4,873 nucleotides of DNA, taken from IMG/VR virus record IMGVR_UViG_2648501338_000012; one strand, 5' to 3'. Numbering within the stretch: position 1 is the first letter of the stretch; the number at the start of each line of letters is the position of its first letter. The notes under the pieces were generated by a model. The model did no database searches and was not told the DNA's origin. It worked only from the letters and a program-made list of their open reading frames with translations. This document shows, in pieces, positions 532 to 4,059 of this stretch. Made by a program: the position numbers and the translations under genes. The stretch is from a virus (lineage: Duplodnaviria; Heunggongvirae; Uroviricota; Caudoviricetes).

Positions 532-546
532 GCGCTTTGTCAGCGC
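532..546 (-). promoter_or_regulatory. nutL boxB RNA hairpin (P22-type: GCGCUGACAAAGCGC on the leftward transcript)
   Basis: Plus strand 532-546 is gcgctttgtcagcgc, whose reverse complement is a 5-bp stem with GACAA pentaloop. As I recall, this is identical to the P22 boxB. It lies about 165 nt upstream of the N-like ORF on the same strand. Confidence 0.65.
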
Positions 547-615
547 CGTAGATTCATATTCGAATCGTTGTATATTCACCGCCCTGGTGAGTAATGCGTC
601 CTGCTGACGATGATA

Positions 616-644
616 ATAATGAACCAATAGTTCGACATTATCAA
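616..644 (-). promoter_or_regulatory. Putative pL-like leftward early promoter (-35 TTGATA, 17-bp spacer, -10 CATTAT)
   Basis: On the minus strand, rc of 639-644 is TTGATA and rc of 616-621 is CATTAT, with a 17-nt spacer. Position is upstream of nutL and N. No experimental support; other promoter placements in 600-830 are possible. Confidence 0.3.
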
Positions 645-655
645 GAACTATTGGT
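623..655. repeat. Perfect 11-bp inverted repeat (ACCAATAGTTC, 11-bp spacer, GAACTATTGGT) overlapping the putative pL -35/spacer
   Basis: 623-633 accaatagttc and 645-655 gaactattggt are exact reverse complements. Candidate operator or hairpin; function not determinable from sequence. Confidence 0.5.
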
Positions 656-825
656 ACGAATTTTGGTGATTTATTAACTCTACGAAGTATGATTCTGATA
701 TATAAGGAAATTTATTTTTGAAAATGTGGCTGATGAAGGTTATGCGGCAGGGATCATAACTGCATGGTTTAGCGAGTTACATCAATAAATACAATTGGTT
801 ATGTTTTTTAGGTGGGCGAACGTGA

Positions 826-854
826 GGCAAAGAAAACCCGGCGCTGAGGCCGGG
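826..854 (-). terminator. Rho-independent terminator ending the leftward cI/kinase operon
   Basis: GC-rich stem 837-842 (cccggc) pairs with 849-854 (gccggg) around a 6-nt loop. On the minus-strand transcript it is followed by UUUUCUUUG (rc of 826-836). Confidence 0.55.
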
Positions 855-1019
855 CTAGATTTTAAAGTATTTATCTTTTAGAGATGTAGATGTAAAACTT
901 TTCGCCTTTGAAAATTTTTTGTCATCAGAAGGGCTTATGAACTCATCTTTTTTGTAGGGAACCGCTAATGCTGCATCACGTCTGCGAGGCAGCTTGCTTA
1001 CTTCCTCGCGCTTTTTCAT
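855..1019 (-). CDS. Possible small lysine-rich ORF (54 aa) between the kinase stop and the terminator; below the ORF-track size cutoff
   Basis: Hand translation of the minus strand from ATG (rc of 1017-1019) to TAG (rc of 855-857) gives MKKREEVSKLPRRRDAALAVPYKKDEFISPSDDKKFSKAKSFTSTSLKDKYFKI. Start is 2 nt after the kinase stop codon; AAGGA about 10 nt upstream; stop abuts the terminator stem. Could be a chance ORF in AT-rich DNA. Confidence 0.25.
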   Translation of the reverse strand: MKKREEVSKLPRRRDAALAVPYKKDEFISPSDDKKFSKAKSFTSTSLKDKYFKI

Positions 1020-1021
1020 GA

Positions 1022-2068
1022 TCAGTTATCCTTTAATAACCTATACAGTTTTGTAGGGGTACATCCTGAGGATATTGTTAAGTTCGTAGCACGCCTTTTC
1101 CGCCCATCATCGTATAAACGAAAACCAGTAGTAGACGAATTTTCTGCGTCAAAAACTATAGACAGTATAGCGTCCCCAGACTTTTTTTGCCATTCGCATG
1201 TGCCGTTAGTTGGTTTCGTCATCTGTAGACGCCAGTCAAGAACGCCATCACTTATAGCTGAGAGATCGTTTAGTACATCTAGTACGGATTGATATCTTTC
1301 ATTTGGATCTACATGAATGCATTTGTTCACTATTGTTATTAATTTTTTATGTATATGGGGAGGATACTCTTTTAATGGATAGCAGCCATTAATTATCGAC
1401 TCTCTGAGTTGTTCAATCGTGCTAAATGCAGATCTTTCTCTTTCAAAATTATCATGTCCAACACACATTCTATATATGGTTAATCCTGCCTGATATATGT
1501 CATATGTGAAATTATAATCATTTGTTGATAAAGAAAAATATTCCGGTGGCACATGAAAATGATATCCAAACTCAGGCGCAGCTCTCGATTCCTCATTGAC
1601 TAACTGAGATAATCCAAAGTCAGATAGCATGGCCTCATTTCTGTTTGATATCATAATGTTATTAGGTTTTATATCAAAATGCATAAGACCTTTTGAGTGT
1701 ATATGATAAAGTCCACTTAAAAATTGAATGGAATACCGTATTATCTCCCTGCTTGTAAGATTATTTTTTTTCATTAATTGGTTTAGCGAACCATTATGAT
1801 AAAATGGCATGGCTATATAGATATTGCTCTCACATTGAGCAGCATACTGAACTTGCACAATATTTGGATGTGCATGTTTATAGAGAAGCCTTGCTTCATT
1901 AAAGTAGTCGTCGTGGTTAGTGTTTTCTTTTTTTTCTATTTCTTTAATCACCAAGTCATGAGCTAGGTGTCTGTCATGAGCCAGATATACTTTTGAAAAA
2001 CAACCCTGTTCTTCTAGATCACTAATCCATTCGAATTCTACATCAGCTCTTTTGTATGGAGTTAGCAT
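1022..2068 (-). CDS. Eukaryotic-like (Hanks-type) Ser/Thr protein kinase with about 85-aa C-terminal extension; resembles prophage Stk-type kinases encoded next to cI
   Basis: 348-aa ORF with the expected kinase motifs in order: Gly-rich loop QGCFSKV (21-27), VIK lysine (K42), alphaC Glu (E58), catalytic loop HFDIKPNN (130-137, the Ser/Thr-type D-x-K-P-x-N), DFG (150-152), PPEY activation-segment end (174-177), DIYQAG (190-195), HVDPNER (252-258). GGAGG SD 7 nt upstream of the ATG. About one-third GC in sampled lines versus about half in cI. Confidence 0.85.
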   Translation of the reverse strand: MLTPYKRADVEFEWISDLEEQGCFSKVYLAHDRHLAHDLVIKEIEKKENTNHDDYFNEARLLYKHAHPNIVQVQYAAQCESNIYIAMPFYHNGSLNQLMKKNNLTSREIIRYSIQFLSGLYHIHSKGLMHFDIKPNNIMISNRNEAMLSDFGLSQLVNEESRAAPEFGYHFHVPPEYFSLSTNDYNFTYDIYQAGLTIYRMCVGHDNFERERSAFSTIEQLRESIINGCYPLKEYPPHIHKKLITIVNKCIHVDPNERYQSVLDVLNDLSAISDGVLDWRLQMTKPTNGTCEWQKKSGDAILSIVFDAENSSTTGFRLYDDGRKRRATNLTISSGCTPTKLYRLLKDN

Positions 2069-2945: not shown

Positions 2946-2960
2946 CCAAACGTCTCTTCA
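2946..2960. repeat. 15-bp direct repeat copy 2 (CCAAACGTCTCTTCA)
   Basis: Exact match to 2575-2589; lies between the cI stop (2993) and the RBS of the 113-aa ORF. Confidence 0.6.
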
Positions 2961-2992
2961 GGCCACTGGTTACCAGCTATGTGACGATGAAG

Positions 2993-3700
2993 TCACGAAC
3001 TTTTCAGCCACTCCCTTGCCTCGATGTCATCCAGATGGCGAGATTGCTTCAGAATACCAGCTACATACTCCACCTTTGCTACTTGATGATAAGGCAACGT
3101 TATAGGCCTGTGATCCTGGTTAATGCTTGTAAATTGGTATTCTCCATCTCTGTCATAGCCAAGAACCTTAATCATGTTGTGTCCTTCAACGGTTCTGACA
3201 AACACCTCATCACCCGGGAATACTTTGGTGTTAGGCTCAATGAGTACATATTCTCCTGATTTTATTCTGGGCCACATGCTGTCTCCTTTCACACGAAGAC
3301 CAAAGGCATCTGGATCATCGCTATAAATTTTGAGCCACCCATCGCGCTCTTCGGTCATCTCGATGGCACCATCAACACCAAGAATTGCCTCACCAACCAC
3401 GCGCACTAACCCTTTTTTTAATTTGCCAACAAATGAAAGAGTATCTTCATCATTCGCTCCATTTAACGAAGTGCCGTGCTGAAGCCAAACAACATCAACG
3501 TTTAGAAATTTCGCAAGCGCATTCATTTTTTCCTGACGCGGTAAAGACTCAGCATTAAACCATTTGCTAACGCCTTTGGACGAAAGAGAAAGGGCACGGG
3601 CTATAGCCATTCCCCTACCATGTTCATCAAGACCAGCTTCTTTACAGGCTTGCGCTAGCCGCTGGGCGAATTCTTTGCGCACTTTTTCATTCTGAACCAT
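2993..3700 (-). CDS. cI: CI-type prophage repressor (N-terminal HTH DNA-binding domain plus C-terminal LexA/S24-like autopeptidase domain)
   Basis: 235-aa ORF. N-terminal region has an HTH-like segment; C-terminal region has the S24 signature GDSM (Ser nucleophile) with a downstream Lys (MIKVL). Divergently oriented to a Cro-like gene across a 78-bp operator region. No SD before the ATG, consistent with a leaderless pRM transcript as in lambda. Confidence 0.9.
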   Translation of the reverse strand: MVQNEKVRKEFAQRLAQACKEAGLDEHGRGMAIARALSLSSKGVSKWFNAESLPRQEKMNALAKFLNVDVVWLQHGTSLNGANDEDTLSFVGKLKKGLVRVVGEAILGVDGAIEMTEERDGWLKIYSDDPDAFGLRVKGDSMWPRIKSGEYVLIEPNTKVFPGDEVFVRTVEGHNMIKVLGYDRDGEYQFTSINQDHRPITLPYHQVAKVEYVAGILKQSRHLDDIEAREWLKSS

Positions 3701-3778
3701 GAGTACGATACTAAAGCACTTGCAAAAACTTTCAGTTCAACCATAATACGTACTGAAAGTACGAAAAAGGATATTCCT
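3701..3778. promoter_or_regulatory. OR-like divergent operator/promoter region (pRM leftward, pR rightward) with palindromic operator candidates
   Basis: 15-bp palindrome CGTACT-GAA-AGTACG at 3749-3763. Related element ACTTTCAGT at 3728-3736, and imperfect palindrome AGTAC...GCACT at 3702-3720. Candidate pR: -35 TTGCAA 3720-3725, -10 TAATAC 3744-3749, with AAGGA SD 3766-3770 before the cro ATG. Hexamer GTACGA recurs at 3703-3708 and 3759-3764, and also at 654-659 in the putative OL region. Confidence 0.6.
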
Positions 3779-4006
3779 ATGCAAAATCTTGATGAGCCGA
3801 TTAAAGGTGTCGGCATCCCTGAAGTTGCGAAGGCTTGTGGAGTTAGCGAAAGGGCTGTCTATAAGTGGCTCAAAAACGGCTTCCTCCCTAAGACTGAGTT
3901 TTTTGGGAAAACTAAATACGCATCAAAAATCGAAGAGATTTCTGGTGGCAAATATCAAGCAAGCGAAATGCTTGAAATAAGCAAAAAGAACCTTCTGGCT
4001 GCATAA
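3779..4006 (+). CDS. cro: Cro-like HTH transcriptional regulator
   Basis: 75-aa ORF, first rightward gene facing cI across the operator region. HTH-like segment IPEVAKACGVSERAVYKWLKNG. SD AAGGA 8 nt upstream. Confidence 0.8.
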   Translation: MQNLDEPIKGVGIPEVAKACGVSERAVYKWLKNGFLPKTEFFGKTKYASKIEEISGGKYQASEMLEISKKNLLAA

Positions 4007-4014
4007 GTAACACC

Positions 4015-4028
4015 GCTATTTTCACAAT
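4015..4028 (+). promoter_or_regulatory. Possible nutR boxA-like element (CGCTATTTTCACAA)
   Basis: Loose resemblance to boxA consensus (CGCTCTT-like), 17 nt upstream of the nutR boxB hairpin. Weak. Confidence 0.3.
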
Positions 4029-4044
4029 GGACATTCGTCCTACG

Positions 4045-4059
4045 TCGCTGACAAAGCGA
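4045..4059 (+). promoter_or_regulatory. nutR boxB RNA hairpin (UCGCUGACAAAGCGA; 5-bp stem, GACAA loop)
   Basis: tcgct (4045-4049) pairs with agcga (4055-4059) around loop gacaa. Shares the core CGCUGACAAAGCG and the 5' flank CUACG with the nutL copy. Located between cro and cII as in lambda. Confidence 0.65.

Follow-up and report, generated by a model that had tools for sequence, protein, structure and literature searches.

The stretch of DNA examined here, called the window below, is the 4,873-nucleotide IMG/VR virus record IMGVR_UViG_2648501338_000012, which is the complete draft contig JHSS01000045.1 in reversed orientation (assembly GCA_001266095.1; 4873 bases). It carries an N antiterminator gene, the nut sites nutL and nutR, a cI repressor gene between them and the beginning of the replication initiator gene O, and it is bounded at both ends by the insertion sequence (IS) IS629. 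Positions 99-4796 align with phage 933W (AF125520, 9181-13878) at 99.8% identity, the base-by-base comparison giving 10 mismatches, and many other Stx1 and Stx2 phages match the same interval equally well, at 99.8%. The GenBank record of 933W, AF125520, already annotates N, nutL, tM, L0081, stk, L0083 and L0084 across the window, together with cI, oR1-3 with pM and pR, cro, nutR, cII and O. The list of open reading frames and the Pfam scan (Pkinase for stk, DUF3024, HTH_3 with Peptidase_S24 for cI, Phage_CII and Phage_rep_O) agree with that annotation, whose features were transferred to the window as locus coordinate minus 1402. We are highly confident that this span is the early regulatory (immunity) region of a Shiga-toxin lambdoid prophage of the 933W/H-19B type, with N and O truncated by IS629. 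The leftward arm of the region would be pL-nutL-N and the rightward arm pR-cro-nutR-cII-O. The features that bear on N, the nut sites, O and IS629 are the following.

1-96, plus strand: right end of one IS629 copy with its terminal inverted repeat, forming the left contig end; 96/96 identical to the right end of the IS629 in Stx2a_F422 (positions 3217-3312 of that record), same orientation.
94-366 (native codons 97-366), minus strand: truncated N antiterminator gene, N', 90 amino acids against 127, with a TGA stop from the IS629 end.
511-526, minus strand: hairpin CCAAAG-UGAA-CUUUGG in the N leader, from the structure tabulation.
532-546, minus strand: nutL boxB, GCGCU-GACAA-AGCGC, from motif and fold, inside the nutL annotated in 933W.
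547-551, minus strand: CUACG linker directly 5' of the nutL boxB, from sequence alignment.
551-566, minus strand: nutL spacer hairpin GAUUC-GAAUAU-GAAUC, from the minimum-free-energy fold.
568-579, minus strand: position of boxA in relatives at nutL, reading GUGAAUAUACAA.
576-598, minus strand: 5' part of the annotated nutL, CGCAUUACU with the hairpin UCACC-AGGGC-GGUGA, near the pL transcript start (933W record, fold).
616-644, minus strand: candidate pL promoter, TTGATA, 17-nt spacer, CATTAT, a consensus scan match only.
4014-4027, plus strand: nutR boxA-like element CGCUAUUUUCACAA, with one change relative to the core CGCUCUUU (933W annotation, nut-site comparison).
4029-4040, plus strand: nutR spacer hairpin GGAC-AUUC-GUCC, from the fold.
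4040-4059, plus strand: nutR CUACG linker (4040-4044) and boxB UCGCU-GACAA-AGCGA (4045-4059), from motif and fold, at the end of the nutR annotated in 933W.
4145-4441, plus strand: cII (Pfam Phage_CII), its last ~60 nt lambda-like from about 4380.
4390-4417, minus strand: oop-type terminator, from the terminator scan.
4474-4839, plus strand: truncated gene for the replication initiator O (O'); O sequence ends at about 4790-4792 and IS629 supplies the rest (junction alignment).
4791-4873, plus strand: left end of an IS629 copy, with terminal inverted repeat and orfA start at 4845, forming the right contig end; 4791-4870 matches positions 2003-2082 of Stx2a_F422, the left end of its IS629.

When compared with the annotated 1310-bp IS629 in Stx2a_F422, the IS629 termini of both contig ends adjoin N and O exactly and lie in the same (direct) orientation; the left IS629 terminal inverted repeat pairs with 4788-4815. 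Residues 1-89 of N' are those of 933W N, and position 90 is V and not A. The last native codon (97-99) reads GTC (Val) where 933W has GCC (Ala90). Since at least one complete E. coli genome matches positions 97-260 at 100%, this A90V change probably reflects allelic variation and not an effect of the IS junction. Intact N has 127 residues in 933W, H-19B and 83 IMG/VR loci; the 90-residue form was seen in the window contig only. O' is native to about residue 106 of the 312 residues of 933W O and breaks off upstream of the ori iterons; the 933W iterons map past the junction, and the window does not hold a complete O that includes them. Such an O' would be unable to initiate replication. It could be argued that the IS629 contig ends are assembly artefacts, that is, repeat-induced chimeric ends, with N and O intact in the real genome. 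The window is indeed a short contig of a draft assembly, and neither the IS629/N nor the O/IS629 junction has a contiguous match in 5,426 complete E. coli genomes, phage records and GTDB representatives. Nevertheless, we regard an artefact as very improbable, because the junctions fall exactly at the outermost base of the IS629 terminal repeat, as in true insertions, the two ends are consistently direct in orientation, a real IS junction typically appears in short-read assemblies as contigs that break off a few dozen bases inside the multicopy IS, and the same 90-residue N' open reading frame is on record for two contigs or samples.

The lost part of N includes the C-terminal tail LPNVAIYAAGYRKSKQLTAR, which is common to the N proteins of P22, phi21-like phages and HK620, and also covers L108, a residue whose replacement (L108F, in the C-terminal domain of H-19B N) suppresses RNA polymerase mutants (PMC4499122). 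In an intact system N would recruit NusA via its central part and modify RNA polymerase via the C-terminal tail, so that downstream terminators are read through. H-19B N without residues 101-127 reads through the nutR-proximal Rho-dependent terminator tR1 and fails at a distal terminator, and deletions within residues 88-95 cause a partial defect even at tR1 (PMC3526286). Because of this behavior of C-terminal deletions in H-19B, N' is expected to be non-processive at best: it keeps the arginine-rich motif (ARM) and the central region without the RNA-polymerase-binding tail, and at best it would counter Rho near nutR without processive antitermination. A local function of this kind, in which N' blocks Rho at nutR/tR1 and permits some cII-O' expression, or else serves as a boxB decoy against superinfecting phages of the 933W/H-19B type, is suggested by the passage of tR1 in vivo and in vitro by H-19B N lacking 101-127, by the merely partial defect of the 88-95 deletions on the tR1 construct (PMC3526286), and by residues 1-90, which are unaltered except for A90V. 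We nevertheless consider it unlikely, given that C-terminal deletions fail at distal terminators (PMC3526286), that cI represses pL in a lysogen and N' is therefore seldom made, that N is normally unstable, and that the truncated form, seen in the window contig only, shows no evidence of having been selected.

By analogy with H-19B, the module is thus best described as a damaged and probably crippled copy, and the contig most likely represents either a defective prophage or part of one. With both N and O interrupted by IS629, a prophage should, on the same analogy, fail at processive delayed-early expression and at replication, and this damage bears on the inducibility of any toxin genes linked to it in the source strain. 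The 4.7-kb block N'-nutL-stk-cI-cro-nutR-cII-O' is bracketed by IS629. Two insertions in a single prophage, IS-mediated deletions, or a unit that is composite or circular would each fit this arrangement, and a block with these boundaries, containing cI, stk and both nut sites, might move as one composite unit.

The nut sites themselves are identical to those of H-19B. The motif CTACGNCGCTGACAAAGCG is present exactly twice in the window, at 533-551 (minus strand) and 4040-4058 (plus strand), and in 0 of 200 dinucleotide-preserving shuffles; a repeat search independently lists both sites as a 19-nt inverted repeat that is 95% complementary and ranks third in the window. On the 933W record nutL corresponds to window 532-598 (minus strand) and nutR to window 4014-4059. 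Both boxB elements fold into a 5-bp stem with a GACAA pentaloop (-8.5 kcal/mol for nutL, -6.6 kcal/mol for nutR), and the outermost pair is compensatory between the sites, G-C in nutL versus U-A in nutR. CUACG is invariant in 10/10 aligned nut sites from five phages; the MAFFT alignment of these ten sites placed no gap at tetraloops and left the 3' arms out of register, and stems were tabulated separately. A preliminary description, made from the letters of this DNA, had proposed two boxB hairpins with GACAA loops and identical CUACG flanks, at 532-551 (minus strand) and 4040-4059 (plus strand), and an N-like protein; all of this proved accurate, and the N-like open reading frame at 94-366 (minus strand) starts MTRRTQFKGNSRSRRRERLKAKALANG. 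The folding of both nut RNAs that it recommended yields both boxB hairpins as well as both spacer hairpins, and its expectation that the hairpins be conserved in related phages is borne out by H-19B, which is identical, and by IMG/VR loci, in which the hairpins are kept and co-vary with the ARM. The exact identity to the H-19B nut sites, the positions just past pL and cro, and the compensatory conservation of the stems led us to reject a chance origin of the two hairpins, or an origin as terminator or operator. An Rfam scan of the window gave a single sub-threshold match, to RpsF_leader (E=0.33); Rfam holds no boxB or nut family.

In both sites a further hairpin separates boxB from the boxA position, and we take these two hairpins to be the "reducer"-type stem-loop of the H-19B nut sites. 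The nutR spacer hairpin GGACAUUCGUCC is the same in H-19B, SPN9CC, epsilon34, VT2-Sakai and POCJ13. At nutL the spacer stem is unchanging among IMG/VR loci and the loop is variable (GAAUAU, AAAUAU or AAGCAA), and the VT2-Sakai lineage has another stem, GUCGA/UCGAC, at this position. The 5' segment of nutL corresponds by homology to the beginning of the lambda pL leader, AUCAGCAGGACGCAC, and the location of the candidate pL fits the conserved leader start AUCAGCAGGACGC. On the other side of nutL, the CCAAAG-UGAA-CUUUGG hairpin lies 5 nt past boxB; lambda, P22, HK620, SPN9CC and epsilon34 all have a hairpin of this type in the corresponding position, suggesting that it is a conserved element of the N leader. 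Between nutR and cII, in the tR1/pRE region, a 7-bp hairpin UAUGCGU-UUCC-ACGCAUA at 4089-4106 is kept in 933W, H-19B, VT2-Sakai and POCJ13, and SPN9CC and epsilon34 have a different, 8-bp hairpin there.

The preliminary description found no convincing boxA at nutL, and the core is truly absent: the ACAA tail alone is retained. VT2-Sakai and POCJ13 have GCUCUUUAAACAACG, a boxA, at the same place. The 933W/H-19B type reads GUGAAUAUACAACG there in nearly all loci examined, and the upstream variants of nutL in IMG/VR loci are nearly all GGTGAATATACAACG, with one minor variant, GGTAAATATACAACG. The missing nutL boxA core is therefore a conserved trait of the lineage. At nutR, CGCUAUUUU lies 17 nt upstream with the spacer hairpin in between; the corresponding element of nutL is GUGAAUAUACAA. 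The boxA-like alleles of nutR in IMG/VR are CGCTATTTT in 55 loci (the allele of the window and of H-19B), CGCTCTTTT in 42-43 loci, together with a few further variants. The second nutR allele, CGCUCUUUU, accounts for about 40% of loci, and CGCTCTTTT is nearer to the boxA consensus than CGCTATTTT. The plan of P22 nut sites, a consensus boxA GCUCUUUA and a short unstructured spacer at both sites, is not found here, and a boxB of the P22 type does not imply a nut site of the P22 type. For H-19B, Neely & Friedman 2000 reportedly found that N needs neither boxA, NusB nor S10 and that the spacer stem-loop acts as a "reducer". The absence of the nutL boxA core from nearly all loci is consistent with such independence of boxA, NusB and S10.

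In order to place N, we compared its ARM and its domain family with those of other lambdoid phages. The Pfam family PF25694 (N_peptide), with a gathering threshold of 27.9 bits, matches P22 gp24 (152.2 bits) and intact 933W N (57.5 bits). The truncated N' falls below the cut-off (21.1 < 27.9), as does lambda N (16.4), and the family assignment is thus valid for the intact gene and not for the window copy. PF25694 also takes in the N proteins of phi21-like phages, HK620, VT2-Sakai, POCJ13 and epsilon34, and lambda N belongs to PF11438, which the window N does not match. Membership in PF25694 amounts to "non-lambda N" and therefore cannot alone tell the P22 and phi21 classes apart. The ARM comparison used 20 residues, K8-G27 of 933W N, in the best ungapped placement with BLOSUM62. 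P22 scored highest (36; 7/20 identical; 37% over the whole protein), followed by epsilon34 (26; 8/20; 75%), HK620 (24; 7/20; 44%), VT2-Sakai (23; 7/20; 59%), lambda (18; 6/20; 30%) and phi21-like N (16; 5/20; 35%). Because P22, at 37% overall, outscores epsilon34, at 75% overall, likeness of the ARM tracks the type of the loop and not overall kinship. The match to the P22 ARM is nonetheless modest in absolute terms.

In the structure of the P22 peptide with its RNA, the C of GACAA is looped out and touches two peptide residues, His7 and Arg11, numbered H21 and R25 in the protein (PMC12550061). These two residues align with R16 and K20 of 933W N, so that both positions are basic, and the residue aligned with lambda Trp18 is N26, with no aromatic residue there. 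The loop is identical to that of P22, and we therefore predict that GACAA would adopt a GNRA-like fold with its third base (C) flipped out, the ARM being a P22-like variant that fits this fold. The ARM of H-19B N has been mapped to 12-RSRRRER-18, with the mutants R3H, S11F, R15C/P and R18P defective (PMC3526286). A PDB sequence search with full-length N gave a spurious match alone (E=1.5), short N-peptide entries being beyond the reach of such a search.

The preliminary description called the module P22-type and proposed that N be aligned with its P22, lambda and phage 21 counterparts. The label holds for the RNA, with GACAA loops and a nutL boxB identical to that of P22 at 15/15 positions, and moderately for the ARM, for which P22 is indeed the best classical match (36 versus 18 for lambda and 16 for phi21-like) with just 7/20 identical residues; it does not hold for the protein as a whole, at 37% identity, or for the plan of the nut sites. 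If the label were true in the strict sense, this would be a working N/nut module of P22 specificity, and N and P22 gp24 could substitute for one another at the nut sites of either phage. The shared loop at both sites, the identical nutL boxB, the top-scoring ARM, the common Pfam family and the common C-terminal tail, LP.VA.YAAG.RKSKQ.TAR, all point in that direction. Yet the window N lacks residues 91-127, which include this very tail, the central regions are unrelated in addition to the limited identity just given, P22 has a consensus boxA 9-10 nt from boxB where the window has a longer spacer with a hairpin and a degenerate or absent boxA, and a literature search found no cross-complementation data. 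We consider interchangeability highly unlikely, and place the N/nut module in the H-19B/933W class, not in that of P22. The further claim that the module pins down the N specificity of this element fails, since an N cut after residue 90 of 127 is a damaged copy and not a working determinant of specificity.

The pairing of loop and ARM extends across relatives. Two IMG/VR scans with CUACG as the anchor listed up to 120 loci each, many of which are near-identical prophages. GACAA sites with a downstream N numbered 89 among the matches listed, all with an ARM of the RRRERLKA type: 88 have GNSRSRRRERLKAKALA or point variants of that sequence, and the remaining one has the divergent GSSAARRRERLKAQAIA. 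GAAA or GCAA tetraloop sites were followed, in 63/63 cases among the matches listed, by an N protein with an ARM of the form G[TS][AS]A[SG]RRR[AE]xR[AS]x[LV]Q, and no mixed combination of loop and ARM was seen among the IMG/VR loci listed. The boxB stems are compensatory, occurring as GCGCU/AGCGC, UCGCU/AGCGA, UGGCU/AGCCA, CGGCU/AGCCG and AGGCU/AGCCU. These counts are not independent events, since the sites lie ~170 nt from the ARM codons and many of the loci are near-identical prophages. In SPN9CC, a Salmonella phage whose N protein is 86% identical, GACAA is retained at nutR, where the stem includes a U.G pair. The nutL boxB of this phage, about 120 nt upstream of N, has drifted to GCUC-CGUCAAC-GAGC, and the two nut sites are thus unequal in one phage.

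The GACAA lineages (933W, H-19B and SPN9CC) have an ARM ending in ...RRRERLKAxA[LI]A, in which the basic residues R12 and K20 match K17 and the C-contacting R25 of P22; the sister lineages with GAAA or GCAA loops have ...RRR[AE]xR[AS]x[LV]Q, with Ala at position 20. It is possible, though we advance the idea only tentatively, that this represents a natural two-state specificity switch inside one N family. If the two classes indeed do not cross-react, the 933W type would be a P22-like mode of loop reading that arose or was retained on a scaffold otherwise reading tetraloops, and the pair would offer a minimal natural system for mapping how an arginine-rich helix reads one flipped-out base. The strict pairing of ARM and loop over about 150 viral contigs is in any case a tidy natural dataset for peptide-RNA recognition, of modest interest.

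The replication side of the region has a different affinity. The N-terminus of O is identical to lambda O at 106/108 residues (98%) with a match to PF04492, versus 46% identity to P22 gp18, and DNA identity to lambda is 93.5% across window 4380-4796, the likeness starting inside the 3' end of cII. Upstream of this point the proteins are distant, with 31% identity to lambda for cII and 24% for cI, and cro has no useful similarity. A mosaic joint in the 3' end of cII, at about 4380, links the N/nut module to an oop/O replication module of the lambda type. The lambda-like character of the cII-O junction and of the O N-terminus had been recognized in the preliminary description, as had the mosaic nature of the regulatory region. 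Both statements are correct (106/108 residues, ~93.5% DNA identity from 4380 on), and the mosaic is already in the 933W annotation, which states "similar to O protein of H19B and lambda". Since 1999 the GenBank record of 933W has described this region together with its nut sites and its mosaic relation to lambda and P22, and the N/nut system of H-19B has been dissected experimentally. The discovery value of the window is accordingly small, its sole local peculiarity being the IS629 damage.

Several points weigh against our reading of the locus as a 933W/H-19B-type region with N and O disrupted by IS629. The evidence for the truncations comes solely from the ends of a draft contig, and the junctions are missing from the genomes and records searched. 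The functional part of the reading is carried over, by analogy, from H-19B, whose N is 97.6% identical, and the independence of NusB, S10 and boxA as well as the "reducer" role are those reportedly described for H-19B by Neely & Friedman 2000. The identity of the ARM to that of P22 is just 7/20, and the linkage of ARM and loop could come partly from physical linkage and shared ancestry and not from selection.

The remaining features of the window belong to the immunity region proper and to the genes beside it.

835-856, minus strand: tM terminator closing the cI-stk maintenance operon (terminator scan and 933W annotation).
855-1019, 1022-2068, 2062-2523 and 2591-2932, minus strand: accessory genes between cI and pL, namely L0081, the stk protein kinase gene, L0083 and L0084/DUF3024, respectively (open reading frames, Pfam Pkinase and DUF3024, 933W annotation).
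2993-3700, minus strand: cI repressor of the 933W immunity type (open reading frame, 933W annotation, HTH_3 and Peptidase_S24).
3693-3763, plus strand: operators oR3-oR2-oR1 with the promoters pM and pR (933W annotation transfer).
3779-4006, plus strand: cro (open reading frame, 933W annotation, Pfam).

The promoter scan independently picked up pR at 3720-3747. A perfect 15-bp direct repeat, CCAAACGTCTCTTCA, at 2575-2589 and 2946-2960 flanks L0084 (DUF3024), with one copy on the cI side of the gene and the other on the L0083 side. Its appearance suggests either that a cassette was inserted here or that a regulatory or junction sequence is repeated.

Among named systems, H-19B and 933W (AF034975, AF125520) are by far the closest. 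The retained residues of N equal those of 933W but for A90V, and H-19B N is 97.6% identical over its full length; in H-19B, nutL is identical in sequence from the CUCACC leader hairpin through boxB, as is the nutR region, and the gene order N, nutL, (stk cassette), cI, cro, nutR, cII, O is shared with both phages. The window differs from them in that IS629 cuts N after residue 90 and O after residue ~106, and from 933W by ten point differences.

P22 resembles the window in the complex of gp24 with boxB (PDB 1A4T), with its 5-bp stem and GACAA pentaloop. The P22 nutL boxB, GCGCUGACAAAGCGC, is the one identical to the window nutL at 15/15 positions, and P22 nutR has the GACAA loop too. The resemblance extends to an ARM frame, G-N-x-[KR]-[ST]-R-R-x-E-R, to PF25694 and to the C-terminal tail present in intact 933W N. 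P22 is unlike the window in its N protein outside this frame, with 37% identity overall, 7/20 in the ARM and unrelated central regions, and in its nut sites, which have the consensus boxA GCUCUUUA 9-10 nt from boxB and a short unstructured spacer. The window sites have instead a spacer of 17-22 nt with an extra hairpin, the invariant CUACG, and no boxA core at nutL. The host-factor requirements of H-19B reportedly differ from those of P22 as well.

VT2-Sakai, POCJ13 and epsilon34 share the nut plan of the window (ACAAYG, spacer hairpin, CUACG, boxB), including the nutR spacer hairpin, and their N proteins are 35-75% identical, sharing the M[ST]R[RK]T N-terminus as well as the C-terminal tail. 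In contrast to the window they have GNRA tetraloops, GAAA or GCAA, and an ARM of the form RRR[AE]xR[AS]x[LV]Q with Ala where 933W has K20, and VT2-Sakai and POCJ13 keep a consensus boxA at nutL. Lambda, finally, has nutL and nutR in the same positions and with the same overall logic, and shares the RRRER core of the ARM, residues 1-106 of O at 98%, and the DNA of the cII 3' end, oop terminator and O region at about 93.5%. It is unlike the window in its boxB loops, GAAGA and GAAAA, in the Trp18 of its N protein and the PF11438 family, and in cI, cro and most of cII, which are unrelated or distant.

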